A stretch of 53,668 nt of DNA from Methanobacterium sp. (GTDB lineage: Archaea > Methanobacteriota > Methanobacteria > Methanobacteriales > Methanobacteriaceae): NCBI GenBank assembly GCA_003166335.1, contig PMWA01000062.1:1-53668 (forward strand), in the 5' to 3' direction. Below, in pieces: positions 1 to 50,161 of the stretch. The notes beneath the pieces were generated by a model. It had not been told where the DNA came from. It did not search any database and saw nothing but the letters and a program-made list of their open reading frames with translations. Each line of letters opens with the position of its first letter. The stretch's first letter is position 1. A program made the translations under genes and the position numbers.

Positions 1-1301
1 GCTTTACTTCTCCCACCAGCGGCGGCTGTTTTCGCTGCAATAACTCCTTGACGATATATTTTACCATTCTTACCAATCTCAAAACCATAAGAACCGGAAA
101 GTGTAGCATCACCATCTGGATGTACTGCTAAGGCGTATTTCTTGTATTCATCGATATCACTGTCAAAGTCTGCGAATGTTGGTTTTTTCCATGTTCCATT
201 ATTAATTTCACCCGCTTTAATCTGCTTAACCGCATTATCATAACAGGTCTGGTTAACAGTGTAATCACTTTTCTTTGCCTGTGTGAACATTTTACCTTGC
301 ATTGAATCTGCGATAGAATACTGATTATTTCCAAAAGCAGCCTGAGCTTCATTCGGCGTACTAGTTGTAAGGCCTGCTCCGCAAACTGCACATGTTGTAG
401 CTTCAGGTGTGTTAGTTGCTCCACATGAACATGTTATTGTTTCATCATCTTCCTCACCCTCTTCATCGGAAGATTCATCTGCAATAATGGCATCTATAAG
501 GGCATCATAGGCACTTTGGAAATCCTGTAAAGCACTTCCAACAGCACCATCATCAACATCCGCATTATTGGTAGATGCGAATTCAACATTATCAAAATCC
601 TGTTTCAATTGTTTCAGTTTTTCAAGAGCATTTAATCCAGCTGTGTTTAATTTAATTCCTTCAGATAGACCCTCAGCATCTGGTAGGTTTGGTATTCCTG
701 AGATTATTTGCTGTGCTATCTGGCCACATACACCATCACTACACACAGCTTCACTTACAGCTACTGAACCGTCACTGGATTTAACTGCGTTCAATGGTGT
801 TACTGTCCACTCAACTAGTTCAGCATCTTCAACTTCAATTGTAAATCCTTGCGCGGTTTCCGGTGCTTTACTTAATTCAAATTTCTCTGTGATACCTCCA
901 ATACTCAAACCTAATGGTATATCCTCTTCAAGACAGCTTTCAACCTCCACCATGGGTTTATCAACTATCTGGTTTCCTGTTTTTTTCCTGACCTGAATTA
1001 CTGGTTTTATTTCATCATTTGCACTTTGTTCTACTCCGAGTACTTTTCCAACGATTTGGCTAGGGTCATGGTGCCATAAACTGATTTTACCTTTACTAGT
1101 TCCTTTGAGTTTGGTTATAAGGGCTTGGCTTAGTCTGTGACCGGTTCGTGATCTTTCAAATTTAGATCCCAATCCTTCAATTTTTATTCTGCCGGTGCTA
1201 TCCTGGTGAAGTGTGGCTGGTATATGGACAAAGAAGGGTTTTTTACCATCCTTAATTGCTTGTCGAACCCATTGCGGATTATATTTGTCTATAGTAATCA
1301 C
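1..1301 (-). CDS. HK97/S78-like prohead protease with long C-terminal extension; 3-prime end runs off the window
   Basis: I translated an uninterrupted minus-strand frame by hand; it is absent from the ORF track because no stop occurs before the window edge. The only candidate start is GTG at 1301-1299, directly after GGAG. Motifs ISLWHHD..IVGKV and IPLGLSIGG resemble the S78 His/Ser regions. An internal CSCG..CAVCG zinc-ribbon-like segment is present. The gene sits downstream of portal and MuF. Confidence 0.6.
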   Translation of the reverse strand, partial: MITIDKYNPQWVRQAIKDGKKPFFVHIPATLHQDSTGRIKIEGLGSKFERSRTGHRLSQALITKLKGTSKGKISLWHHDPSQIVGKVLGVEQSANDEIKPVIQVRKKTGNQIVDKPMVEVESCLEEDIPLGLSIGGITEKFELSKAPETAQGFTIEVEDAELVEWTVTPLNAVKSSDGSVAVSEAVCSDGVCGQIAQQIISGIPNLPDAEGLSEGIKLNTAGLNALEKLKQLKQDFDNVEFASTNNADVDDGAVGSALQDFQSAYDALIDAIIADESSDEEGEEDDETITCSCGATNTPEATTCAVCGAGLTTSTPNEAQAAFGNNQYSIADSMQGKMFTQAKKSDYTVNQTCYDNAVKQIKAGEINNGTWKKPTFADFDSDIDEYKKYALAVHPDGDATLSGSYGFEIGKNGKIYRQGVIAAKTAAAGGRSK

Positions 1302-1719
1302 CTCCTTTGGTGAATTAAAGAACTTTTTAAATAAAATTTAAAAAAAAGAATTTAGAATATTAAATAGATACATCACTTTTCATGTTCTTTTTTACACTTG
1401 AAGTGCAAGACTAAATATTTGTTTAATTTAAATTTTGAATTCAAAATGAAAAGATCAGTAAATATTAAAATTAACTATTTCTTAAAAAAATCACATTCAA
1501 AGGGATTTAATAGGATTTATAAAAATATCACCTAAAAATTAATTTACATCTTTCTTTTACTGATAAATAGGGTTCAAATTACGTATTTTAATTTAAAACA
1601 AACTAAAAATTCTTGGAATAGAATTAGTATTACTATTTTAGAGGTCTTTTATATGTAACATATAAAAACATGGTACCAATATTTCGATTTTTAAAACAAA
1701 TTTATTACTCATTTCATCC

Positions 1720-1747
1720 TCTTCGTTATATTGCCATATTACGAAGT
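1720..1747. repeat. dif-like palindrome copy a: TCTTCGTTATA-TTGCCA-TATTACGAAGT
   Basis: 11-bp inverted arms with a 6-bp spacer. It is intergenic, between the protease start and the 3-prime end of the adhesin-like gene. Confidence 0.7.
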
Positions 1748-1905
1748 AAAATATATATTTGCTAATAACTTATTCCATCTTCAACACCCTAGCATTTTAC
1801 ACTAACATGGATTTAAAAAAAGAAATATGAGAAAGTGAATATATTATGATTCACAATAGCTAGTGCGGGCTTGTTCTTTTTGTTTGTGCTGAGTAAACCT
1901 AAAAT

Positions 1906-1921
1906 CCAGATAAAAATCTGG
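1906..1921 (-). terminator. Hairpin CCAGAT-TTTT-ATCTGG downstream of the adhesin-like gene
   Basis: 6-bp stem, 18 nt after the stop at 1939, followed by a T-rich tract on the minus strand. Confidence 0.3.
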
Positions 1922-1938
1922 ACTATTCAGTTACGTGC

Positions 1939-2946
1939 TTAAATACGTTCAATACTACCATAAAATTCTGGTGTGTTTCCACTTATTTTTGTATTTATAT
2001 CGTAATAAACCTGACCTCTATCGTTGTCGATTCCTCCACCACGTTCTGCTTTGTTGTCGGTGATACTGGACTCACTTATAGTTACAACACTACTACGCCC
2101 GTTGTAGATTCCTCCACCCCACTTGACAGCGGTGTTTGACGTGATAGTTGATTGTTGTAAAATCACCATACCGCCATTGTTTAGGATTCCTCCACCCCAA
2201 TTGTCAGCGGTGTTGGAGTTGATAATGGAAGAGTATATATTTAAAGTACCATACCCACAGTTGTAGATTCCTCCACCATAATAGGCTTTGTTGGCGGTGA
2301 TATTGGTAGAGTATATATTTAGAGTTCCATAGTTTATGATTCCTCCACCATTATATGCTTTGTTGTCGGTGATATCGGAAGACCGTATGGTTACAGTAGC
2401 CTTCCTCGCGTTGTAGATTCCTCCACCATTAGTTGCTTTGTTGTCGGTGATAATGGAAGACTGTAATGTTAACTTACCCTCGTTGTAGATTCCTCCACCA
2501 TCAGTTGCATCTCCATGTGTGATGGTGAATCCACTTATATCAGCAACAATGTTAGGCTGAATTTTTATTACGCTGCCTTTATTTTCTCCATTTATAATAG
2601 TGTTTTTGGTGGCTTTGAGAGTAACATCTTTATTGATATTCAGGTTTTCATTGTATGTGCCTGGTTCTACATACACTATTCCACTTTTTGCCACGGTGTC
2701 TATTCCTTTTTGTATGGTTTTCAATGCGGTTTCAGGTGTTGTACCATTGTTCTCATTACTGCCATTGGTTGCCACATAAATAATTTTACTGTTAACGATA
2801 TTTGCAGTAGCTAAATGAGTATTAGTACTAATGTTATTTGTGTTATTAACTGTTGCTGCACTGGATGAACCTGCAGCAAACATAATCACACTGAGAAATA
2901 GCAGAAATAGCATTAATTTCTTAATATCTAATTTGCATATTTTCAT
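1939..2946 (-). CDS. Secreted adhesin-like protein with PMP-type (GGGIYN) parallel beta-helix repeats
   Basis: N-terminal hydrophobic signal/anchor, then about eight repeats of the form S.I..N.A..GGGI.N of roughly 25 aa. The second ATG (2946) is preceded by AAGGGGGGT. Confidence 0.65.
   Translation of the reverse strand: MKICKLDIKKLMLFLLFLSVIMFAAGSSSAATVNNTNNISTNTHLATANIVNSKIIYVATNGSNENNGTTPETALKTIQKGIDTVAKSGIVYVEPGTYNENLNINKDVTLKATKNTIINGENKGSVIKIQPNIVADISGFTITHGDATDGGGIYNEGKLTLQSSIITDNKATNGGGIYNARKATVTIRSSDITDNKAYNGGGIINYGTLNIYSTNITANKAYYGGGIYNCGYGTLNIYSSIINSNTADNWGGGILNNGGMVILQQSTITSNTAVKWGGGIYNGRSSVVTISESSITDNKAERGGGIDNDRGQVYYDINTKISGNTPEFYGSIERI
2020..2520 (-). repeat. Tandem coding repeats of about 75 nt inside the adhesin-like gene
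   Basis: GATTCCTCCACC recurs at about 75-77 nt spacing (near 2031, 2108, 2184, 2265, 2338, 2414, 2488). Confidence 0.6.
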
Positions 2947-3138
2947 TTTTCGACCCCCCTTGATCATATAACATCATAAATAATGTAGTATTCATCAAGA
3001 TAAATATTTTATGATAAATATACATAAATATTCTTATAATAATAAAAATTTAATATAAGCATTCATTGGGTTAATGTCGGTTTAAATCTTATAACTTAAA
3101 AAAAGTCATTTAATTTTTTTATTATAAATAAATTCGTC

Positions 3139-3149
3139 ATGTACGAAGT
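3139..3149. repeat. Isolated right arm of the dif-like palindrome (ATGTACGAAGT)
   Basis: Matches the right-arm consensus TATNACGAAGT. It lies 4 nt from the MuF-like stop, and a short TTCGT..ACGAA inverted repeat overlaps it. Confidence 0.4.
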
Positions 3150-3153
3150 TCAT

Positions 3154-4164
3154 TTATCCAAAAGTTATAATCGGAGCTCCAGGCGGATCATTACATTGAC
3201 ATAAATCATGTAAAGTTGATGGTGGGAAATTATCTATAGGGTAAGGTCCACCAGCAGCCATATCCTCACAATCTTCACAAGGACCGTTACGGGTACAGTT
3301 TCCATTATCTTGGCAAGTTAACCATGGTAGTAAAATTGTTAAATTTGATATTAAAGCCGTTGCAAGAAGTCCTGCGACTAAATAACCAGCCATGAAACTT
3401 TCAAGCCATCCGAACATTCCCAGTTGGTCTAAATTATCCTGAGCATTATTAAATACATTATCTGTACTGCTGTCATCTTCTTCGCAGTAGCTTTCTAATT
3501 CTGCTTCAGTCCAATCTGGATGTAATTGGTGCTGCTGTTTCATGCACGGTGTATAATCAGACTGTGCTTGTTTCAGTTTTTTAGGGGCTTTGAAATGATA
3601 ATAACTTTGAATATCATTCATATCCACTTTCTGTCTTAAACGACCCCTTATTATAAGTCCGATATCCTCTAAATTTTGTAATTGCTGTCTAAGAATACTT
3701 TGAAGCCGTGGCTGTTCATTTGCTTGAATTGGTGGATTGACTTTTGCTTTAGTTAAATATCCGTTCATTGAGTCATAGCCATCTTGGTAGCGGGTTTGAA
3801 CTGTATTTTTAACTAATCCTTGTGTATCGTTGATAAATGTTTGAACAGAATTATCTATCTCAGATATTTTATCGTCTGCTGTTAACGCATTATTATAAAT
3901 AGTTTTTTTAGCATCATCATAAAGATCGTGCAGTGAATCTAATAATTTTTGACGGTAATCAACCTGTTCTTGTGTGGGTTTTGTTTCGCCTTTTTGTTCA
4001 TCTACATCGAATGTGGGTGCTGATTGATTCAAAATAATGGACTTGTTATTTGCTTTTATTATTAATTCCTTCGTGACTTGGTTAAGGAATTCTTGACTTG
4101 TTGGAAATTCATTGAGGCCTGTAGCGTCTAACAGTTCTTTTTTCATAAGAACTGTGGGTTGCAT
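3154..4164 (-). CDS. Head morphogenesis protein, SPP1 gp7 / Mu F-like
   Basis: The C-terminal pattern W..C.D...C..C....GGPYP....PP..LHDLCQC resembles the MuF/gp7 motif (W..D..C..C..G...P.HP.C.C). The position after the portal fits. Confidence 0.5.
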   Translation of the reverse strand: MQPTVLMKKELLDATGLNEFPTSQEFLNQVTKELIIKANNKSIILNQSAPTFDVDEQKGETKPTQEQVDYRQKLLDSLHDLYDDAKKTIYNNALTADDKISEIDNSVQTFINDTQGLVKNTVQTRYQDGYDSMNGYLTKAKVNPPIQANEQPRLQSILRQQLQNLEDIGLIIRGRLRQKVDMNDIQSYYHFKAPKKLKQAQSDYTPCMKQQHQLHPDWTEAELESYCEEDDSSTDNVFNNAQDNLDQLGMFGWLESFMAGYLVAGLLATALISNLTILLPWLTCQDNGNCTRNGPCEDCEDMAAGGPYPIDNFPPSTLHDLCQCNDPPGAPIITFG

Positions 4165-4296
4165 GGTTGATCAACTTTTTATTTAAAATAATTGTAGAAA
4201 AAATAAGAATAAATTCTATCATCAAAAATAATTATAAACAATTCATTTATCCTTTTTAAATGTACCATAATCTATAAATCTTATGAAATAATTAAT

Positions 4297-4307
4297 ATTA
4301 ACGAAGT
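4297..4307. repeat. Isolated right arm of the dif-like palindrome (ATTAACGAAGT)
   Basis: Intergenic, between the MuF-like start and the plus-strand receiver gene. Confidence 0.4.
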
Positions 4308-4399
4308 TTTATTTAGATATCATTTATGAAAATAGTGAATAATACATATAGGGGTAAATTTTCTGGTTTTTATTTTCGCTATTGAATGGATGTTAAAAG

Positions 4400-4831
4400 A
4401 TGGTAATGAAAACGATTAAGCCTGTTGAGATTTTGTTGGTTGAAAACAATCCCGGTGATTTGCAAGAGTTCAGTTTATTGTTTAAAGAATCATCTATTCC
4501 CAATAATTTCCGTTTTGTAGGCAATGGAGATGAAGCATTAGAAATGCTGTTTCAAATGAATGTATTTAGTGATATTCCACGGCCAGATGTTGTAATATTT
4601 GATATTCATTCTTTTAGAAAGGAAGATTGGAATTTATTACAAGAGATTGCCAAAGAAGCGGGTATAAAATGTATACCAGTGTTATTTTTAACCAAGGATT
4701 TAGGCATTAAAGAAGAAGCTGAGAAACATTTTAGCTGTCCCATTCATTCTTTAAACGAACCAAATAGCATAAATGAATACAAAAATATAGTGAAATCTGT
4801 AGAGGATTTTTGGCTTAGTAAACAAAAATAA
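4400..4831 (+). CDS. Stand-alone CheY-like receiver domain, degenerate (pseudo-receiver)
   Basis: ILLVENNPGD, VVIFD and FLT are receiver-like. The second acidic residue of the ED pair is N, and the conserved K-P is replaced by E-P (SLNEP). It is a paralogue of the canonical host copy at 45185-45619. Confidence 0.7.
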   Translation: MVMKTIKPVEILLVENNPGDLQEFSLLFKESSIPNNFRFVGNGDEALEMLFQMNVFSDIPRPDVVIFDIHSFRKEDWNLLQEIAKEAGIKCIPVLFLTKDLGIKEEAEKHFSCPIHSLNEPNSINEYKNIVKSVEDFWLSKQK

Positions 4832-4934
4832 AAGTATTACATAAATTATATTTATTCAATAATTCTTAACTTATTCAAAAAATACGTACCTATAACTTCC
4901 AAAACATTAAAAATATATTTGAATAGGTGATTTA

Positions 4935-5681
4935 ATGAGTAAAATTACTTCTAAAGATGACTATAATTCGAATTTTAACCAGTTATTGAGCCGGCTTGGA
5001 TTCTTCTCAGCGGTTCTGACGGTTTTAATTACGGTTGTGTTTCTCCTGGCTGGTATCTTGACCCCTGCGAGATCAGGACCTTTCGCCACCTCTGCTGTTA
5101 ACGCTATTCACTATCCCTATACGAATGTGGCTGCTTTTATTCCTGGTGATTACTTATGGATTTATCCGGGAATTCTATTAGCACTGATATTCATAGTGCT
5201 AATGGTGTGTATTCATTATTACTCCTCTGATGATAAGAAAGTTTTTAGTCAGATTGGTTTGTCATTCGCTTTAATTTACGCTACGGTGATACTCATAGAT
5301 TATTTTATTCAGTTAACTGTGATCGTTCCCAGCATCATAAATGGTGAAACAGCCGGTTTATCATTGCTTACGCAATATAATCCGCATGGAATATTCATTG
5401 CCCTTGAAGGCCTCGGATATTTAATGATGAGTGTGGCTTTCCTCTTCATGGCTGCTGTTTTTAATGGTGGACGACTCGAGCGTGCAATAAGATGGATTTT
5501 CATTTCAGGTTTCCTGATTGCAATCATCTTTTTTACAATTCTTTCTTTGTTGAAATATGATATTGTAGCGTTTGAAGTAGCTATTCTCACTATAAATTGG
5601 ATAGTATTGATAGTTAATGGGTTGTTATTGAGTGTTTTGTTCCATCGAGCTGCTCAACATTCTCCTTCACTATCCCAATAA
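4935..5681 (+). CDS. Polytopic membrane protein of unknown function
   Basis: About 6-7 hydrophobic helices. It is co-oriented with, and directly downstream of, the receiver gene. Confidence 0.6.
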   Translation: MSKITSKDDYNSNFNQLLSRLGFFSAVLTVLITVVFLLAGILTPARSGPFATSAVNAIHYPYTNVAAFIPGDYLWIYPGILLALIFIVLMVCIHYYSSDDKKVFSQIGLSFALIYATVILIDYFIQLTVIVPSIINGETAGLSLLTQYNPHGIFIALEGLGYLMMSVAFLFMAAVFNGGRLERAIRWIFISGFLIAIIFFTILSLLKYDIVAFEVAILTINWIVLIVNGLLLSVLFHRAAQHSPSLSQ

Positions 5682-5745
5682 AACATTTTTAAAATAATTA
5701 CAAAATTTCTTTGGTAAAATAATTTAATTTAAGATTATTAAATCT

Positions 5746-5772
5746 ACTTCGTTAAACTAACTATTACGAAGT
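5746..5772. repeat. dif-like palindrome copy d: ACTTCGTTAAA-CTAAC-TATTACGAAGT
   Basis: 11-bp arms with a 5-bp spacer, in the convergent gap between the membrane protein and portal stops. Confidence 0.7.
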
Positions 5773-5776
5773 ACCA

Positions 5777-7258
5777 TTATAAAACTTCAATTAGCCCATT
5801 CTCTTCAAGTAGTTTCTGAACATTCTGCTCCAATAAACTCTGTTTCTGCTTCTTTCGAGGAGTTAAACTAGCCTGCTGAACTCCCTCTCTACATAATTCA
5901 TTTTTCATCGCATCATTAATTGACTGTTTAATTGGTGTAGCGGGCTGTGAAGGACTTGTAAGTAAATTCGCAGGTGACATCTTATCTAATAACCAGGGTT
6001 GATCACCAACACCGAGACCTTCAAAATCTTCTGGATAAGGGTCATCACCTCTTGCAGTCCTAATTTCATTCCATGTCCTACTACCATTCTCCCAAGCCTG
6101 AGTATCTAATTCCCCTTGTCTGACTTGATCAGTTTTAGTTAAATTTCTAAATCCAAGAATTGTATCCTCAATACCTGCAAATTCAAGTAAACGGAAATTC
6201 AAGTGAGAAAGAATCATATTCATATTATTGTTAAGGGTGTCATTCATCATGTCATCTTGATTCTCACCCTCACCATTACCAATAGATCCTCCATTTCCAA
6301 ATCCTATTTTACTTTGAGGAACATGGTAAGCTGCTTTAACCGCGTCTATGATGTTTTGGGTGATAGATGGTGTAAGCATATCACTGTTAGTGCTGCTTAA
6401 CAATTCATAAGTAGCACCGAAAATAGCTATATTCCCGTTCTTTCCCTCTTCCTCTAATGATTTTATCTGTCTACCTACCCTATCTACTTCTTTCTTCGCT
6501 ATCTCATAAGGAATTGTTTTATCAAAACTAAGAACTCCCTTGAGCATGTCACTAGTGAAATATCGGAGGTTATGCTCTACAACCGCCTCATCAAGCATTA
6601 AATGATTGAATAAACCAACCAATGGTGTTAATCCTTTAGAATCATCAAAAGGATTCGGGTCAAATATTGGTATTATGCCATTGTCTGGGAATACATAGCC
6701 ATTCTGATTTATGAAAAAGATTTTATTATTCACTTTTTTAGCTTTAATATGTGAAGGTGCAATCCTATCCAACCTTGCAGGCCATCCAAACATATTATAA
6801 GTCACTTCAACATAGGCAGATCCACACTGTTTATAATCGGTTGCAATCATCTTAGCAAACACATTCTCGGGTTGCAATGGGTTGGGGTGGTTGATTAAGT
6901 TCTCTAAATATTCTATTTCAAGTTCATTAGGATGTTGAAGATCCTTCGCAATCCCTATAATATCAGCATTGCTTATTGGATCTGCTATTGCATTTATGGC
7001 GCTGGATATCCATACATTACTGGTGGCTAATTGTGCGCATGTGAATGGATTTAAGTTTAAGTAAGCTGTTTTAAAGTAGCTGTTTTTGTAATAACTGATG
7101 AAATCTCCTATATTCTGGAAACGCATGCCCGAAAATTCAGATAATGTGTCAAGTAAGTGTGTGGGGTCGAATGTATCAGAGTGTTGAGATGGAAATATCC
7201 TTTTTCCGGCGTTGGTGATGCTGTTTAATGCATTTCCAATGCCTTGTGTTATTTTCAT
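5777..7258 (-). CDS. Portal protein
   Basis: About 490 aa in the terL-downstream position typical of a portal. I did not identify a diagnostic motif. The start was chosen at MKITQG (GGGAG 9 nt upstream); the ORF track allows 7300. Confidence 0.55.
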   Translation of the reverse strand: MKITQGIGNALNSITNAGKRIFPSQHSDTFDPTHLLDTLSEFSGMRFQNIGDFISYYKNSYFKTAYLNLNPFTCAQLATSNVWISSAINAIADPISNADIIGIAKDLQHPNELEIEYLENLINHPNPLQPENVFAKMIATDYKQCGSAYVEVTYNMFGWPARLDRIAPSHIKAKKVNNKIFFINQNGYVFPDNGIIPIFDPNPFDDSKGLTPLVGLFNHLMLDEAVVEHNLRYFTSDMLKGVLSFDKTIPYEIAKKEVDRVGRQIKSLEEEGKNGNIAIFGATYELLSSTNSDMLTPSITQNIIDAVKAAYHVPQSKIGFGNGGSIGNGEGENQDDMMNDTLNNNMNMILSHLNFRLLEFAGIEDTILGFRNLTKTDQVRQGELDTQAWENGSRTWNEIRTARGDDPYPEDFEGLGVGDQPWLLDKMSPANLLTSPSQPATPIKQSINDAMKNELCREGVQQASLTPRKKQKQSLLEQNVQKLLEENGLIEVL

Positions 7259-7451
7259 CAATTGATATCTCCCATTATTTTTTATTGAAAGTAATTTCAA
7301 TAGCAGAATAATTTAATAAAACTAAGCACATTTCGAATGAATATTTTAGATCCAAAATGATAAAAAAATATGAATTAAATAGTTCATCAGTTTATGAAAG
7401 TTTTAAATAATATAATTAACTACTCCTGTAATAACATGGGGATGGTAACTA

Positions 7452-8669
7452 ATGATTTTAAAAAATGAAATTGTAATTCCTAGAGGGGAAAAAGAGTATT
7501 TAGAAGTTCGTGGAATAGCTGTTAAGGGCTCTGATTTTGATATTGGAAAAGACTTGGCAGAAGTAGGAATTAAAGAGTATGAGATACAATTGGATAAATA
7601 CAAAACTCCTGTTTACGGTAAAGCTAGACAGAATTATATGAAAAGAAATTTTCCAGCTCTAGCCGAAAGGGCTCGTGGAGTGGCTGATGCATTTAAACTG
7701 GATCTAAATGAAACCAATTATGATACTACTATTTTACCTTTCGATTTGGGTGATATGGCATGTTCTGCTATTTATTTCCCTGCTTCTTTAACAGAAAATA
7801 ATCATCCTTGTGTTTGCCGAAACTTGGACTGGTATGAGGAAAGTGTTACTGAATTGGGATCAGCTTTGATGGTTATAGAAGGTAAACCATCCAGAAAATC
7901 ACTTTCTAGAATAACATCTGTGGAATTTTATCCCGAAAATGGGTATAATACTGTACAATTTGGATCGCATGATCTACTTAACCCTCCCTTGGATGGAATT
8001 AATGAAAAAGGACTTTTTGTAACCATTCTCATAGATTTACAAGGATCAACAACTCCAATGCCATTTGGAGGAGCCATAGATACAGGAATGTCTTTTTCAC
8101 AACTTACAACCATGATCCTTAATAAGTGCGCAACTGTAGAAGAAGCCAAATTTGAGATCCTGCAACAAAGAGTTTATATCCCATCTAGGGCTATGCATTT
8201 CCTTATCGGAGATAAGGACGGTAATGTAACACTTTTTGAAATTGATGGGAAATCTGGTTTATACTACTTTATAGATGGAATCCCTGAGCAACCATTTATA
8301 GTAACCAATCACTCTATGCACATGTATCCAGAACCTTCCAAATTCCCTGAATATGATCCAAAGGAAGGATACAACACATTCAATCGCTGGAATCGCCTAG
8401 ATGAATACATTAAAAAACATGAAGGTGTTTTCACCAATGAAGATATGTTCGAAGCCATGAGCTTAGTTTATTCCCATTACAAGGATTCCATAGCAGCTGG
8501 AGGATCTTTCCCATTCACAGAAAGAACTATGTACACCTATGTAGCAGATATAGCTGAAAAAACCATGGAAGTCAAATTTTATAGTAAAGACGGCCCATCA
8601 GAAGATGGAAGCGAAAACCCTTCGATTATTTTCCATGATCCTGTAACTCTAGCTTTAAACTACGAGTAA
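7452..8669 (+). CDS. Ntn-hydrolase, peptidase C45 / choloylglycine-hydrolase-like, with roughly 100-aa propeptide
   Basis: Cys104 in ..[10 protein letters not shown].. is followed by CRNLDW (R-N-x-D of linear-amide Ntn hydrolases). The N-terminal region [21 protein letters not shown] is like C45 precursors, which self-cleave before Cys near residue 103. Confidence 0.6.
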
Positions 8670-9101: not shown

Positions 9102-10592
9102 CTACCACGTTCCTATTTCAACATATTCATTTGGTTCCTCTGGAATATCTAACTCACTAAAAGAACCTGAAAGAGCATCAACGAAATCTTTATGTTTATT
9201 ATTGGGGAAATCAGTGACAACTGTGATAAAACGTTTAATCGCCCCTTCTTTACTTCCATGAAAATTAGTGATGATTTCTCCAGGTGCATTCCTATAAATA
9301 TAAATTTTATTTATTTTCGCCCAACTACCAGGCGCTTCAGCCCTATATTCTTTATCACCAGATTCTATAATTCCTTCAAAATTATAACCTGGCATCATCA
9401 AAGAATATTTTTTAACTTGACCTTTGGAAGCTTGGCCAGGATCTTGAGGTATACAATATTTTGGTTTTTTACCGCCGAGTTTGACGCTTTGAATTATATT
9501 CTTAGTTACAGTATCCTCTTCTTCCCACATTTCCTCTAAATATGTGATAAATAAACGCATATCTTGTGTTAAAGCTAATCGAACCGTTGCAGTTGCAGCT
9601 CCTCTCTGTTTTATTGGCACTTGTGGGGGATATGATGTAGCTGCAAGGTCGGACCATTGTACCTCTTGAATAATATTATCTGGTAAGTAATCAACAATTT
9701 CAAAATCTTGTTGTCTGTAAAATTTACCTTCACGTTCTTTTGGGTTTCCTTGGTGAATCGCATTAAACCTATGTTCACCCATTGTATTTTTAAGACGTTC
9801 TGCTTTTGCTTTATCAACTCGTTCATGCCATATTGGTTCTCCAGGTTCACGTCCTAATATATCATTTTCTTCAGCTAGTAATGGTAAATTTAAAACCACC
9901 CAGGTATCTTCAGGTATACTTTCTCCATTTCTAAGGAGTTTTATAGCATCTTTAGCTAATATGTACGGTTCTGCATCTAATATTTGACCTGCAAGATCAC
10001 AAATATCCAATCTTTGAGCAATATAAACCATTGCTCCAGGCATACCGTCTGTTATATCCTTTTCTACTCGTTGCAATCCGATGTTAAGATACCATTCCCA
10101 TGTTCTCTCTTGATATGTGGGTGATCGGGCTTCTTCAATGTTTTTATGAGGATCATCGATAATGAAAAGGTTTGCACCTTCACCCATAATAGGACCACCA
10201 GAACCTCCGGTGACCAATCCACCTTTATGTCCTTTTATATCCCATTTATGGGAAGCTTTACTATCATCTTTTATAAGAACATCAGATAGGAACATATCAG
10301 TTCCATAATAATGTAATAGATCTCTTGTTTCACGTCCCCATTTAGCTGCAAAACCTGCACCATAACTGGTGAGTATAGCTCTTTTTTCTAAGAATGTTCC
10401 AAGATACCAAGATAAAAAATATTTACTTATTAATTCACTTTTACCATGCCTTGGAGGCATGAAAATCATTAATCGATTTAACTTACCTTGAATTAAAAAT
10501 AATAAAAATTCAATAACTATAATTAAATGTTTAAGAGGTTTCCAACGTTTCTTAGATGCCTCAATTGCATAAGTACCCACACCATAGGGCAT
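9102..10592 (-). CDS. terL: Terminase large subunit
   Basis: Walker A-like PPRHGKSE and Walker B-like LFIIDDPH, followed by a C-terminal nuclease-sized domain. The start at MPYGVG lies 1 nt after the upstream stop; the track's longer N-terminus overlaps terS. Confidence 0.85.
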   Translation of the reverse strand: MPYGVGTYAIEASKKRWKPLKHLIIVIEFLLFLIQGKLNRLMIFMPPRHGKSELISKYFLSWYLGTFLEKRAILTSYGAGFAAKWGRETRDLLHYYGTDMFLSDVLIKDDSKASHKWDIKGHKGGLVTGGSGGPIMGEGANLFIIDDPHKNIEEARSPTYQERTWEWYLNIGLQRVEKDITDGMPGAMVYIAQRLDICDLAGQILDAEPYILAKDAIKLLRNGESIPEDTWVVLNLPLLAEENDILGREPGEPIWHERVDKAKAERLKNTMGEHRFNAIHQGNPKEREGKFYRQQDFEIVDYLPDNIIQEVQWSDLAATSYPPQVPIKQRGAATATVRLALTQDMRLFITYLEEMWEEEDTVTKNIIQSVKLGGKKPKYCIPQDPGQASKGQVKKYSLMMPGYNFEGIIESGDKEYRAEAPGSWAKINKIYIYRNAPGEIITNFHGSKEGAIKRFITVVTDFPNNKHKDFVDALSGSFSELDIPEEPNEYVEIGTW

Positions 10593-10593
10593 C

Positions 10594-11160
10594 TTACGAT
10601 TCAATTTTTTCTTCTTTTTCACTGAGGACACGCAAGACACCTAATTCCTGTTCCCTAAACTCATCAGTGCCTAATAATTCTAATGTATGCTTAAACCTAT
10701 GTTCTGATCTGACTTCAGCGTCCAACTCAATCTTAGTTATATCTTCTCCTTGAGCTGTTTTAATCATGTCCTGGGCAATTTTACCACTTTCAACTGTGAA
10801 CTTCAATAATGTCACTGGGATAAATGCCTCAGCATCTAATTTTCTATTGATTATGTCTAATTGTTTTTGAGCTACTTCTAAAGCTTTACGTCCGAACTTT
10901 TCACATAATAAATCATCTTCAACTATATCATCTGCAAGTAAATCTGACTTTTTTTCTAATGATTTTTGCTCGGTCCTTGCTCGGAACTTTGCTCGTTCTC
11001 CTTTCCAATTTTCATTAGATGCTCTTTCACCTAATGTTCCAGGACTACATCCATGAATTTTACATAGTTGTTTTTGGCTTGGGAATCTTTTTGTACCATC
11101 TTCTTCTTTTATACCTTGTATATATTGTTTTTTGATTGTTTCCCATCTATATTTGGCCAT
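10594..11160 (-). CDS. Putative terminase small subunit (N-terminal HTH)
   Basis: Sits immediately upstream of terL. It has an HTH-like segment QKQLCKIHGCSPGTLGERA followed by coiled coil. Confidence 0.45.
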   Translation of the reverse strand: MAKYRWETIKKQYIQGIKEEDGTKRFPSQKQLCKIHGCSPGTLGERASNENWKGERAKFRARTEQKSLEKKSDLLADDIVEDDLLCEKFGRKALEVAQKQLDIINRKLDAEAFIPVTLLKFTVESGKIAQDMIKTAQGEDITKIELDAEVRSEHRFKHTLELLGTDEFREQELGVLRVLSEKEEKIES

Positions 11161-19864: not shown

Positions 19865-19940
19865 GTGAATTCCTTTACTATTTTGTCTTGTTTTTTTCCG
19901 TCCCGTTTCAATACCTCCTTAATTTTTAATTAAAATATAA

Positions 19941-20010
19941 GCCAGTAGGGAATCGAACCCCCGTTTCTCGGTTACAGGCCGAGCACATCACCAAACTATG
20001 TTATACAGGC
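19941..20010 (-). tRNA. tRNA-like element, non-canonical (anticodon position reads TGT)
   Basis: Has a D arm ACAT/ATGT with GG in the loop, an anticodon stem CTCGG/CCGAG and a T loop TTCGATT. The T stem has only 3 clean bp, the acceptor stem has a T-T mismatch, and position 33 is C. It is either a pseudogene or affected by homopolymer miscalls. Confidence 0.35.
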
Positions 20011-20023
20011 AATGAATTTAGGA

Positions 20024-20340: not shown

Positions 20341-20538
20341 TTAACCACCTCCAATACTTGCGAGTGTCATTAATTCAAAGCTCCAGATTATGATCGCAGC
20401 CCACATAACAATTAATAATGCTAAAATGATAATTGCAGGTCTGGCTGTGAAATAATCATAAGCTTGGATGTAAGGATCTTTCTGGCGTGGTCTGAGTAAA
20501 TCTGCTCGTCTTCGTGTTCGTTCACTCATTTCAAACAT
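20341..20538 (-). CDS. Small membrane protein
   Basis: Hydrophobic segment IIILALLIVMWAAIIIW. Confidence 0.4.
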   Translation of the reverse strand: MFEMSERTRRRADLLRPRQKDPYIQAYDYFTARPAIIILALLIVMWAAIIIWSFELMTLASIGGG

Positions 20539-21242
20539 CTCCTCATAGATTTAATTACATCAGAATCTAAAATTCCAATATACCTTTCTTGAATTATTTC
20601 ACTAATTTTCACAGCTTTTTTAATATAAGCTAATGAAGCAGCTTCTTCTGACTTAAAATAACCCAGATTTTTACTTTTTTTATTAATCGTGATATGAACC
20701 TGCCATTTTTGAACATTCTTATTCCAACTAACCCCCTTAAATCGACTTGTGAAATTGGGTTTTTTAATAATAACCTTTTCCCCATTTATAAGGGCATTAT
20801 ATGCATTTTGATATTCTGCTTGGGCTTCTTTCGATGTGTTAAAACGTCCTAACCAATATTTCTTATTATCATATTGAACTTGAGAAATCCACTTTCCTGT
20901 TTGTTTACAAAAACAAACACCAGGATATTGACTGCTTCGTGGATGGTGCCTATTTTGACCATTTTCATTACCCGTAACAATTCTAAGATTTTCCCTTCGA
21001 TTATCCAACCCATTTCCATTAATATGATCGACTTGTTTCAATTTATGCGGATTTAAAATAAGTCTATGTAACAGAATATGCCCATTTCCATACCTTTTAC
21101 GGGCATATTTTAAATTATCAGGTCGTTTACGGTCATGGTGTAAATGCCATTTCTGGTTTTTAATTTTTTCATAATCTTCTGCATCGATTAAAGTGAAGTC
21201 TAGGCCGTTACTCAAAGGAAAAAAATATGTAACATTTTTCAT
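20526..21242 (-). CDS. HNH endonuclease with two AP2 domains (homing-endonuclease-like)
   Basis: DHINGNGLDNRRENLRIV plus two YPGV/FKGV...W.....K...LG.F...EA..AY modules. Confidence 0.8.
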   Translation of the reverse strand: MKNVTYFFPLSNGLDFTLIDAEDYEKIKNQKWHLHHDRKRPDNLKYARKRYGNGHILLHRLILNPHKLKQVDHINGNGLDNRRENLRIVTGNENGQNRHHPRSSQYPGVCFCKQTGKWISQVQYDNKKYWLGRFNTSKEAQAEYQNAYNALINGEKVIIKKPNFTSRFKGVSWNKNVQKWQVHITINKKSKNLGYFKSEEAASLAYIKKAVKISEIIQERYIGILDSDVIKSMRRCLK

Positions 21243-24653: not shown

Positions 24654-25787
24654 TTATTTTCGTTTCTCATCTTCCCTATGTGCTTTAAGTATTTTATTTT
24701 CTCTTTCAAGTTTATTCATCCTTTCCTCAAGCTTCTTAACTTTTTCGTCAGTGAGATCATGAACTTCTACTTTACCATAAATCGTTACTTCATCCATATT
24801 TCGATAGTAACGTTTCTTTAAATCTTCGTAGTCATCTTTTAAATATCGTTGTCCAGTGTCATCCTGAATCTCATGACCCATCAAAATCCGTGTTTCAAGA
24901 TAACCAAGGTCTGTTTTTTTTAATTGATTTCCAAACCATTTTCTTAAATTATGTGGTCTGAAATATATATACCCATTTGCACTAATAGGGAACTGGCATA
25001 TTCCATTCAAACGCCTGAAATATACATTTACAGTTAATTTATGCATCTCCCTATCTTTTGGGTTTCGGAATAAAAAAGTATCTTCTTCCGGTTTTTTTGG
25101 TGGTTGATGGTGTAAGTATGCTAATATATAATCCAAGCTCTCAGGTGTTGAAAAACATGTGTGAAATTGCCTATTTTTCTGCATCTGGTAGTGCCAGGTG
25201 AGAGGTCCTATTTGTTCTGGGACTTTTTGGATTACATGATCCATATCAGTTAATTCATTTACATCGATTTTAATATATTCACTTATACAATCGACAAAAT
25301 TTTTTAACCTTAAATTTCTACAATCACCCTGCCTCATCCCACTACTGGCCATTAAAATAATCATAGCTTGATATTTTACATTCGCAAAGCTTAACGCCCT
25401 TTTAATATCATCTATGTTAGGGAGGTCTATTAACTCTTCATGAACTGCTGTTTTTAGGGGTCTTCGCTGGTATGGTGGTAATTCTATTGAATTCAAAGTG
25501 TAAAATGCCCTTATGATTTTGATTGAATTCTTGATGTGAAGTTCTGAATATTTTTGGTCTTCAAGGTAGAGTTCAAAGTCATCCAAGTGGTCATTTATAC
25601 TTCTACGTTTAAGACGTATCCTGTTTTCTTCTTCGTCATCAGCTTCTTTAATAGCTTCTGTTGGTGTTAAGCCAGTTGCTTTATAATATTTTTGGAAATG
25701 ATAAATATATATCCGTTGCGTTGATTCTACAACATGTCTTTTACGGAAATATTTTAATAACAATGGATCCTTATCTATATTATTCAC
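24654..25787 (-). CDS. int: Tyrosine recombinase / phage integrase
   Basis: ASSGMRQGD (catalytic R), HNLRKWF (H..R) and LMGH......QRY (H and nucleophile Y) in the C-terminal domain, with an N-terminal SAM-like domain. Confidence 0.85.
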   Translation of the reverse strand: MNNIDKDPLLLKYFRKRHVVESTQRIYIYHFQKYYKATGLTPTEAIKEADDEEENRIRLKRRSINDHLDDFELYLEDQKYSELHIKNSIKIIRAFYTLNSIELPPYQRRPLKTAVHEELIDLPNIDDIKRALSFANVKYQAMIILMASSGMRQGDCRNLRLKNFVDCISEYIKIDVNELTDMDHVIQKVPEQIGPLTWHYQMQKNRQFHTCFSTPESLDYILAYLHHQPPKKPEEDTFLFRNPKDREMHKLTVNVYFRRLNGICQFPISANGYIYFRPHNLRKWFGNQLKKTDLGYLETRILMGHEIQDDTGQRYLKDDYEDLKKRYYRNMDEVTIYGKVEVHDLTDEKVKKLEERMNKLERENKILKAHREDEKRK

Positions 25788-26823: not shown

Positions 26824-26897
26824 GCCTCGGTGGCTTAGTCCGGTATAGCGCGGGATTCGTAATCCTGAGGTCGCGGGTTCAATTCCCGCCCGAGGCT
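26824..26897 (+). tRNA. tRNA-Thr (anticodon CGT)
   Basis: Acceptor GCCTCGG/CCGAGGC, D arm GCTT..AGC, anticodon arm CGGGA-TTCGTAA-TCCTG, T arm GCGGG-TTCAATT-CCCGC. No encoded CCA. Confidence 0.9.
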
Positions 26898-39221: not shown

Positions 39222-39249
39222 ACTTCGTTAAACTTCTATATAACGCAGT
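39222..39249. repeat. dif-like palindrome copy e: ACTTCGTTAAA-CTTCTA-TATAACGCAGT
   Basis: 11-6-11 geometry with one arm mismatch, inside about 1 kb of ORF-free AT-rich DNA. Confidence 0.55.
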
Positions 39250-40695: not shown

Positions 40696-40821
40696 TAAAA
40701 TATAAACATTTACTATTAACGAAACATCCTCACTATACAGTTCAAAATTTAGAAGCTAAATTCTAAATACTTCAAAATATATTTTTTTTTACTTCTTTTT
40801 CCCAGCCATATTATGCATATT

Positions 40822-45184: not shown

Positions 45185-45619
45185 ATGGACACTGAGAAAA
45201 AATCGATTGATATTTTGCTGGTTGAGGATAATCCAGGTGATGTAAGACTTATCATAGAAGCATTTAAAGATACGAAAATTCCCCATAATTTAGCAGTTGC
45301 ATCTGATGGAATTGAAGCTATGAATATATTAAAACGGGAATGTAATTACTGCGATGCAAACCGGCCCAACTTAATAATCCTAGATCTTAACTTACCTAAA
45401 AAAAGCGGACGAGAGATCATAAAAGAAATCAAACATAATGATAAATTGAAAATGATACCAATTGTAGTTCTAACAACTTCCAGTGCAGAAGAAGATATAA
45501 AGGAAACCTACAAAAACCATGTAAACGCCTACCTAACTAAACCTGTTGATCTAGATCAGTTCATTAATGTGATGAAATCTATTGAATATTTCTGGCTATG
45601 TAATGTAAGACTACCCTAA
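45185..45619 (+). CDS. Stand-alone response-regulator receiver domain (canonical)
   Basis: ILLVEDNPGD, IILDLNLP (Asp acceptor), VVLTTS, AYLTKP. Confidence 0.85.
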   Translation: MDTEKKSIDILLVEDNPGDVRLIIEAFKDTKIPHNLAVASDGIEAMNILKRECNYCDANRPNLIILDLNLPKKSGREIIKEIKHNDKLKMIPIVVLTTSSAEEDIKETYKNHVNAYLTKPVDLDQFINVMKSIEYFWLCNVRLP

Positions 45620-49209: not shown

Positions 49210-50133
49210 AAACTCAATTTATTTCTTTATAAATTTGTATTATTGTATTTTACAAAAATTTCTAATGATTTAATATTTAATAAAATTCTTTGGAATTGAA
49301 TTCAAGGCATTATCAGATCATTCCAGAGCTTATTTGTACATTTCAAGTTATTAAATAAGATCATTATGATCAATTAATAAAATAAAATCGCATTTTATAA
49401 TAATCTACGGTTTTACTTTATTTTTTTAGATGAATATCGTCTAATGTATAATGTGGTTGAGTAATAGAACTATTATCTAATTAATATAATATTTTTCAAA
49501 TAGTAGCAATGATTATTCATAGTATCTTATAATATATTATAACTGATTTAAAATGTCGTAAAACAAATACTGGGTATCCTTAGATTTATAACTACACTTT
49601 AAGGCTATTTTCGATGTACTTTTACGAAAAAAAAGTATTATTGAATTCTTAATAAATTTGATGAAACGATAAGAATTAAGCAACATATGCCTAAATGGAT
49701 TTTAGATTTCAACATAAATGATTACAAAATTGAAGATTTGGAAAGAATGGATAATGATAACTTCAAAGTTTCAATATCGATTGAAAGGTGAAAAAGCTTT
49801 TATTATGTTCATTTATTTGGTGACTATATCATAAGTTACTTCTATAAGCCACTAACCCACTAGAACAATACAAAAATAAGTATTTTATTTAATTCTTTGG
49901 TTATTTTATAACGCACCTATTCCATCAATCATTCATCGCAATTAAATGCTATTCACTGATAAATATTTTTGTGGATAGTTTATTTTAATTAGACTTTATT
50001 GAGTTTTAATCAACATCTTGTGAATTACTTAAGATAACATTTAAATAAATTTAAATTCATTGTCATTTGATAATTTATCAAATAATCGAATAGTTAATGC
50101 ATAAATCTATTCTGAATAATTTTAATCTTATTC

Positions 50134-50161
50134 ACTTCGTTATAGATAGCTATGACGAAGT
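50134..50161. repeat. dif-like palindrome copy f: ACTTCGTTATA-GATAGC-TATGACGAAGT
   Basis: Near-perfect 28-bp palindrome in decayed intergenic DNA. Confidence 0.7.

Follow-up and report, generated by a model that had tools for sequence, protein, structure and literature searches.

A dif-like palindromic site in the chromosomes and head-tailed viruses of Methanobacteriaceae: a candidate core site for a host tyrosine recombinase

Why does one short palindrome recur at the borders of genes that seem out of place in the head module of an archaeal provirus? The question is raised by a Methanobacterium contig (PMWA01000062.1, assembly GCA_003166335.1), of which a stretch of 53,668 nt, called the window here, was analysed. 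It contains part of a head-tailed provirus in which three gene modules lie between the portal and prohead protease genes, bordered by copies or remnants of a palindrome with two 11-bp arms and a centre of 5 or 6 nt. An earlier sequence-only reading had proposed that such palindromes are the recombination sites through which cargo genes entered the virus. The analysis reported here shows that the palindrome is lineage-wide in the Methanobacteriaceae and that, at one locus, gene blocks come and go directly beside it. We hold with moderate confidence, from sequence comparison, that it is the core site for a trans-acting tyrosine recombinase, probably that of the host, and that it bounds gene modules as pdif sites do.

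The palindromic site and its family

Four full sites are present in the window. Site a (1720-1747), TCTTCGTTATA-TTGCCA-TATTACGAAGT, has an 11-6-11 layout, with the adhesin-like gene on one side and the prohead protease gene on the other, and scores 32.7 bits with a position matrix derived from some 94 related sites. Site d (5746-5772), ACTTCGTTAAA-CTAAC-TATTACGAAGT, has a 5-nt centre (11-5-11), scores 37.7 bits and lies 5 nt past the portal stop codon and 65 nt past that of a membrane-protein gene; its sequence is the same in two further loci, L117 and L123. The other two are in the host chromosome: site e (39222-39249), ACTTCGTTAAA-CTTCTA-TATAACGCAGT (32.8 bits), has one mismatch in its right arm (ACGCAGT) and sits in a long intergenic region, and site f (50134-50161), ACTTCGTTATA-GATAGC-TATGACGAAGT (34.8 bits), sits inside an intergenic region of 1.1 kb. 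When the matrix was applied to the whole window and to shuffles, these four were found in the window, none in the shuffles, and the strict matrix returned nothing else at 12 bits or more. The four copies announced by the sequence-only reading are thus borne out. The consensus it gave is matched exactly by d and f only (0 expected); a starts with T instead of A, and e has its right-arm mismatch.

Two partial sites, which are supported by their position only, accompany the full ones. Site b (3131-3149), 5 nt past the stop codon of the gene for a 336-aa head protein (p336), had been taken for an isolated right arm but is a compact, decayed palindrome, AATTCGT-CATGT-ACGAAGT, with a weak hairpin (z = -1.7). 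Site c (4297-4307), ATTAACGAAGT, is indeed a lone arm, with 10 of 11 arm bases, and has neither a partner arm nor a fold; it lies where the 336-aa gene and the receiver gene diverge, 93 nt upstream of the latter. All six sites are intergenic, as had been claimed, and a agrees with d in the order of its arms. Eight occurrences of the heptamer ACTTCGT/ACGAAGT were counted in the window (2.7 expected), each within one of the six sites, and b and c fall in the roughly 16% of the region that is intergenic, at module boundaries. The perfect dyad is only 7 bp long (ACTTCGT-N13/14-ACGAAGT), and inner arm positions are often unpaired.

The pattern CTTCGTTAWA-N5-6-TATNACGAAG was searched in one genome per species (185,579 species) and found at 116 loci or more. 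Among the matches listed, about 100 of the 116 are in Methanobacterium, Methanobrevibacter, Methanosphaera or unnamed Methanobacteriaceae, and about 13 are bacterial; roughly half of these last have a 5-nt centre, they show no flanking A/T, and they look like chance matches. Each genome contains several copies, dispersed over the chromosome. For example, chromosome OY969932.1 (2.7 Mb) has at least five, between 0.80 and 1.89 Mb, other single contigs also contain several, and there are two in the 28 kb of host DNA in the window. In addition, AT-rich viral loci from IMG/VR yielded 27 further sites in 219 kb, against none in shuffles. The motif family is therefore one of Methanobacteriaceae chromosomes and their head-tailed viruses, lineage-wide. 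Since e and f are in the host chromosome, the motif is not a device of the virus alone, nor is it specific to insert boundaries such as those to which the sequence-only reading had linked it. In the genomes scanned, the motif is nearly always intergenic, has a few copies per genome and is restricted to this lineage. No description of the motif was found in the literature searched on archaeal tyrosine recombinases, Methanobrevibacter viruses and archaeal integrons.

Across the family, the extended consensus is TTTA-CTTCGTTAWA-N6-TATWACGAAG-TAAA, about 30-34 bp. The spacing CTTCGT-N14-ACGAAG is fixed in 102 of 103 related genomic sites, and the centre is 6 nt long in 102/103 genomic and 23/27 viral sites. 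The arms are conserved across genera, while the centre is free (78 distinct cores in 103 copies). The two arms are unequal, CTTCGTTAAAC versus CTTCGTTATAG, in 53 of the 78 cores. Arm positions 7 and 9 are unpaired in 36% and 68% of the sites, respectively, and no covariation of the flanks was found beyond 2 nt. This suggests that selection acts on arm sequence and distance and not on a helix, which points to a protein that reads double-stranded DNA. Conserved arms, a free centre and the 11-6-11 layout agree with the tyrosine-recombinase architecture that had been proposed. An extended hairpin was rejected on the lack of flank covariation, and a larger mobile element around the site because pairwise similarity stops within about 20 nt of it.

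Hybrid half-sites were also seen at L093:3048, L110:2545 and L098:1489, where the left arm and centre are joined to another conserved sequence, TTTACCnnATGGTCGTTA. The distance to a full site is 0.3-1.7 kb in each case. In L093, a 264-bp tandem duplication contains one hybrid and one full site.

Exchange of flanks at the site

Identical 26-mers, centre included, form 19 pairs of sites, against 1.3 expected from column shuffles, and in 14 of these pairs both flanks are unrelated. The copies are related by descent. Metagenomes were scanned for one such 26-mer, the exact sequence of the family with the centre CTATCC, and its flanks were found in several combinations: X-site-Y1 (L152, L155), X-site-Y2 (L154) and X2-site-Y1 (L142), with flanks 100% identical over up to 500 nt. 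With two further contigs, the locus shows four arrangements: Glyox-site-membrane-121aa (A; L156, L157), MFS-Cys-rich-site-121aa (B; L152, L155), Glyox-[regulator, MFS, Cys-rich]-site-membrane-121aa (C; L142) and MFS-site-121aa (D; L154). Gene blocks of 0.7-3 kb are thus present or absent directly beside an unchanged site. In L152, a decayed copy with the same centre (TTTACTTTATTATAGGATAG...) is found at the far end of the Cys-rich block, and in L142 a looser relic is found at the Glyox/regulator junction. Between L154 and L152, identity is 100% to one side of the site and drops to about 88% on the opposite side, which makes the site a mosaic boundary. By these comparisons, the site is the exact point at which flanks have been exchanged. 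A module present in two unrelated replicons and still bounded by two intact sites was not found.

Other loci also show breaks of homology at the motif. In a related genome (L079), homology with the window starts exactly at e; to the left of e, there are 596 nt in the window versus 2267 nt in L079. The pairs L050/L059 and L060/L113 each have one flank only in common. Contigs from independent assemblies have an end within 50 nt of a site in 7 of 103 cases, against 0.9 expected. Around the window's own sites, L159 begins 3 nt ahead of f, L169 stops within f, and L129 covers the DNA from a point 20 nt before reaching d to one 18 nt past a.

Some further features were noted in the host DNA of the window. 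Near f, L160 and L161 have a 264-nt deletion (window 49835-50098) that ends 35 nt left of the site, and L166 has a 52-nt deletion (49483-49534) in the same long intergenic region. A 59-nt sequence from this region, GATTTATAACTACACTTTAAGGCTATTTT... (49584-49642), has a copy with 86% identity at L123:17492-17549, in a provirus intergenic gap left of the window, with a further motif copy about 80 nt away. A second hot spot of indels lies at about 40745-40820, between a methyltransferase gene and an ArsR-type regulator gene, with an extra 3.6 kb in L005 and 1.9 kb in L079; its junctions contain no motif copy.

Candidate mechanism and competing explanations

If the site is a recombinase core site, a conservative site-specific recombinase would be supplied in trans, most likely a tyrosine recombinase of the host: XerA, acting independently of FtsK, or another conserved paralogue. 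One monomer would bind each conserved arm. Strand exchange would take place across the variable 6-bp centre and be confined to sites whose centres match, and this need would explain the families of identical sites. Repeated rounds could insert, delete or swap small modules that lack a recombinase of their own, like the dif modules of Acinetobacter. In the provirus, d, c, b and a would delimit the membrane protein with the receiver, a displaced head protein and the adhesin-like protein, which may have arrived by this route; e and f would be ordinary host copies. Host XerA is the obvious candidate, as a conserved enzyme that acts on 11-6-11 sites and needs no FtsK. A phmmer search with the window integrase found a relative in 1 of about 150 loci, 3 kb from the site, and this lack of a nearby recombinase fits a host enzyme acting in trans, which is also how the Xer-exploiting elements work that the sequence-only reading had compared.

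The closest known system is that of the Acinetobacter dif modules. There, many 28-bp dif-like pdif sites (11-6-11), whose arms are unequal and whose centres vary, flank small accessory modules without a recombinase. Published accounts describe these modules as shuffled between replicons, with host XerC/XerD proposed to act in trans. What is shared is the presence of several dif-like sites that bound small recombinase-less modules, in chains such as d|c|b|a in the window or the array of the viral contig L136, and as modules present or absent beside a site in L142, L152, L154 and L156. In contrast to Acinetobacter, where the modules are on Rep_3 plasmids, the sites here lie in archaeal chromosomes and in virus structural-gene modules; their arm sequence is unrelated, and chromosomal copies are mostly solitary. 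As to the alternation of C/D and D/C sites known from Acinetobacter, among the few arrays at hand a and d agree in arm order, and in L136 site 5 is in the opposite orientation to site 4. Moreover, with XerA as the only Xer recombinase of archaea, the unequal arms are left without the XerC/XerD explanation.

Archaeal dif, at which XerA resolves chromosome dimers, is itself a 28-bp site of two 11-bp inverted repeats around a 6-bp centre, and XerA recombines plasmid-borne sites in vitro independently of FtsK. The motif shares the 28-bp 11-6-11 layout, the intergenic position and the AT-rich bases beside the centre. However, dif is present once per chromosome, near the terminus, and the motif occurs in at least five dispersed copies. 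The dif of Pyrococcus abyssi, ATTGGATATAA-TCGGCC-TTATATCTAAA, matches the motif only as TTGGATATA versus TTCGTTATA, with each arm shifted by one base; 7 of 9 inner arm bases then agree, and the outer bases differ.

A second resemblance is to loxP, the site of the phage P1 Cre recombinase, ATAACTTCGTATA-GCATACAT-TATACGAAGTTAT. Its outer heptamers ACTTCGT/ACGAAGT and their 14-nt separation are the same as in the motif, and both have AT-rich inner arms. Like loxP and the lox-like sites rox, vox and VloxP, the motif has a variable centre, and in Cre/lox recombination the centres of the two partners must match. On the other side, loxP is a 13-8-13 site beside its own recombinase gene, and the motif, which has no recombinase nearby, carries one extra T in each inner arm; read as 13-8-13, it matches the loxP arm at 8 of 13 bases. 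A lox system with a Cre-family recombinase in cis was set aside, as only the single locus mentioned above has an integrase relative. No relative of the provirus integrase could be detected in the PDB, not even Cre, and no motif lies near its gene. A published survey reports no direct relationship of archaeal tyrosine recombinases to Cre. The likeness to loxP may be convergence.

Integron attC sites, including those of archaeal integrons, share with the motif the arrays of short genes, imperfect palindromic sites, cassettes without a recombinase and foreign cargo beside a fixed site. They are roughly 60-140 bp long. An attC site, with its paired R/L boxes, is recognised by its structure as a folded single strand and stands beside intI and attI, unlike the motif, which is about 30 bp long, conserved in sequence and poorly paired in its inner arms. 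An attC identity was rejected, as inner positions are mismatched in 36-68% of the copies, the flanks do not covary and no integrase is nearby.

Several observations weigh against a recombinase core site, or against its role in the provirus. Chromosomal sites are almost always solitary, with a second site in none of 103 8-kb blocks, and this disagrees with simple site-by-site insertion, which predicts two flanking copies; at the far ends of gene blocks, only decayed relics are found. The excess of contig ends at sites could have a technical cause. The recombinase is putative, and the verified P. abyssi dif differs from the motif in arm sequence and register. In the window, non-chance recurrence holds for the full sites (0 in shuffles) and, by count, not for b and c: both are below the half-site matrix threshold, and the two heptamers that they contribute outside full sites compare with about 2.7 expected by chance. 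The portal-protease junctions of relatives, which match the insert positions and had been suggested as a check, carry no motif, these relatives being distant (47-61% portal identity). All 19 of 19 contigs with this provirus are collinear, without polymorphism at a-d, so nothing shows these particular modules moving. The junctions of a further insert in the provirus, an AAT-like gene, contain no motif copy. Finally, in viral operons, where the adjoining genes are co-directional, the site follows a stop codon by 1-94 nt and precedes the next start by 2-76 nt, and in the viral contig L136 five sites in 2.7 kb form a gene-site-gene-site array, one after each small gene, with centres or loops of 4, 5 or 6 nt, a pattern that suits an RNA hairpin.

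The main rival, which has its best support in this operon context, takes the site for a regulatory hairpin or a factor-binding element that stands at gene ends (a lineage-specific terminator, an insulator, or an RNA processing or stabilising signal), bidirectional as it is palindromic, whose 26-34 identical bases recombine only passively. Promoter-stem-loop cassettes shuffle genes in T4-type phages, and such a hairpin would resemble them. The tight spacing in viral operons favours it, as do the positions of d and b just after the portal and p336 stop codons, the nearest chromosomal genes, which end at the site (10-56 nt off) and never start closer than about 70 nt, and folds that beat those of shuffles (z = -3 to -5). 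However, no T-run follows the stem, the flank consensus being TAAA, and a terminator scan of positions 1-8000 gave 3 candidates against 3.6 expected, none of them at a-d. The sites are thus not classical terminators, and an intrinsic terminator (a G+C-rich stem with a T-run) was rejected. The bidirectional terminator that the sequence-only reading had kept as an alternative falls away in that form, and an RNA hairpin role is retained as a rival. Most chromosomal copies are 100-600 nt from any gene, which counts against this rival; the frequent mismatches at stem positions 7 and 9 and the lack of flank covariation indicate that the arm sequence is conserved and not the helix. At the gathering threshold, Rfam matches no site and only two tRNAs in the window. 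In addition, 26-34 nt are short for homologous recombination, yet the junctions are exact. We consider this explanation rather unlikely, but a serious rival all the same, and it would still make the motif a lineage-wide cis element.

A selfish short palindromic repeat of the REP or MITE type, spread by a hairpin-recognising transposase such as an IS200/IS605-type or RAYT-like enzyme, would also place identical copies in unrelated contexts and would be intergenic, palindromic and confined to one lineage. It is improbable: there are only a few copies per genome, with 78 different cores among 103, similarity does not extend past about 20 nt from the site, the neighbourhood is not enriched in any transposase family, and insertion of a palindrome cannot yield X-site-Y1, X-site-Y2 and X2-site-Y1 with identical flanks. 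REP/REPIN elements in particular, which come in tens to hundreds of near-identical copies, are often paired and have a RAYT gene, were rejected on the small number of copies, their solitary state in 8-kb blocks and the lack of an enriched transposase. An operator role, with a dimeric or tetrameric transcription factor of the host, half-sites two helical turns apart and a dispersed regulon that might consist of horizontally acquired genes, would account for the conserved dyad arms, the fixed spacing and the free centre. PAS/histidine-kinase genes, at 22 of 103 loci, are the only family enriched nearby, and site c stands upstream of a receiver gene. However, the four orientations of neighbouring genes are about equally frequent (++21, +-20, -+14, --14), convergent gene ends included, there is no preferred distance to start codons and none within about 70 nt of a chromosomal site, and arm type shows no relation to the direction of neighbouring genes. 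Without a fixed relation to gene starts, and with diverse neighbours, the sites do not look operator-like, and identical centres in unrelated contexts and flank swapping are unexpected of independent operators. The alternative, also raised by the sequence-only reading, is therefore poorly supported, and we regard it as very improbable. A conserved regulon or a nearby regulator was likewise rejected, the neighbours being diverse and the PAS/histidine kinases only somewhat enriched. An MsvR-type operator (TTCGTA-N4-TACGAA) was dropped, given its different spacing and the lack of a relation to promoters.

A core site for a host recombinase thus remains our preferred explanation. More tentatively, the data could reflect an undescribed dif-module- or integron-like system of gene shuffling in Methanobacteriaceae and their viruses, in which a host recombinase independent of any partner factor (XerA or a lox-type paralogue) would act on dispersed sites of 28-34 bp, variable centres would define compatibility groups, and recombinase-less modules would travel between chromosomes and the genomes of viruses, reaching even the structural genes of a head-tailed virus; we see this as possible but doubtful. 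The logic would be that of the Acinetobacter dif modules, with differences in the domain of life, the replicons and the arm sequence. How archaeal viruses and methanogens acquire accessory genes is poorly understood, as known archaeal integrases explain the integration of whole elements and not the gain or loss of single genes. A conserved site that marks exchange would offer a concrete, testable mechanism. If true, such a system would be the first in archaea and a route for archaeal viruses to pick up host genes, and it would extend the Xer-exploiting dif-module principle from Acinetobacter plasmids to archaea and virus genomes. It would give a sequence tag for mobile modules in Methanobacterium, Methanobrevibacter and Methanosphaera, including gut and rumen methanogens, and could supply a lox-like tool for methanogen genetics.

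The provirus and its inserted modules

From position 1 to about 25800, the window is part of a head-tailed provirus whose genes are mostly on the minus strand. The large terminase gene (9102-10640) is followed by that of the portal protein (5777-7300, minus strand; Pfam Phage_portal, E = 3e-27), the upstream neighbour of the inserted block. The downstream neighbour is a prohead protease/scaffold-like gene (1-1292, minus strand), a reading frame that runs off the left window end, with 42-47% identity to the gene directly after the portal gene in the relatives L118, L119 and L121. An integrase gene (24654-25787) marks the provirus end; with no motif copy near it, the motif is not the provirus attachment site, and that candidate was rejected. 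From about 25900 on, the genes are those of the host (chorismate synthase, pyruvate oxidoreductase, PheRS, rubrerythrin and others).

The gene order in the three relatives is terminase - p336 (two genes) - portal - protease. In the window, it is terminase - [AAT-like, opposite strand] - portal - d - [membrane protein, receiver; opposite strand] - c - p336 - b - [adhesin-like] - a - protease. By gene order, this fits three modules, delimited by d, c, b and a, placed between portal and protease genes that are neighbours in relatives. The bracketing given earlier is correct, with a and b around the adhesin-like gene and c and d around the receiver and membrane-protein pair. The inserted genes are cellular in type, and one of the three modules is a displaced viral gene. 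The proposal that these genes were mobilised as cassettes is upheld in part: exchange at sites elsewhere, the lack of a recombinase in cis, the cellular cargo and the adjacency of portal and protease in relatives agree with it; the motif-free junctions of relatives, the 19 uniform contigs and the weak half-sites do not. With c and b decayed and a d centre of 5 nt, the block now appears frozen.

Between c and d, module 1 (4400-5681) is on the plus strand, opposite to the head genes, and encodes a receiver-domain protein (4400-4831) and a membrane protein (4935-5681). The receiver has 33% identity to a host receiver at 45185-45619 in the same window. The membrane protein has 1317 homologues in archaeal genomes, with 60-76% identity, and in cellular genomes these stand in other gene contexts, with no motif there. 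It belongs to a large unannotated archaeal family, whose cellular copies usually precede a PEMT-family methyltransferase gene instead of standing with a receiver gene.

Module 2, between c and b, is the displaced p336 gene (3154-4164, minus strand), which lies downstream of the portal gene in the window; its homologues in L118, L119 and L121 form two genes upstream of it. The relatives L131, L121 and L119 have a site near the start of the p336 homologue, which may be the origin of site c. The second p336-homologous gene of L121 encodes an ADP-ribosyltransferase toxin domain. Module 3, between b and a, is the adhesin-like gene (1939-2967, minus strand), whose product has a signal peptide and PMP repeats (Pfam Chlam_PMP) and a weak PHROG tail-fibre match; it is missing between portal and protease in relatives. 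The AAT-like gene (7452-8669, plus strand; Pfam AAT), a third opposite-strand insert, between terminase and portal, resembles acyl-CoA:6-APA acyltransferase or Ntn-hydrolases.

The provirus has two more motif copies just left of the window, seen in L123. A search of a phage collection by DNA and by portal protein gave no match to the virus, and a single-protein query of IMG/VR gave none. Two independent contigs of a related virus start 33-58 nt before a full motif copy (L119:54-89, L120:29-64), so that in this virus the motif may be close to an end of the genome, or the assembly may break there.

The provirus also contains a tRNA-Thr(TGT) gene at 19939-20011 (minus strand; 41 bits), which is weaker than the host tRNA-Thr(CGT) at 26824-26897. 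Either the virus carries this tRNA as its own or an older attachment site has left it as a relic; both are possibilities only. The neighbouring gene (20526-21242, minus strand) encodes an HNH endonuclease that has AP2 DNA-binding domains.

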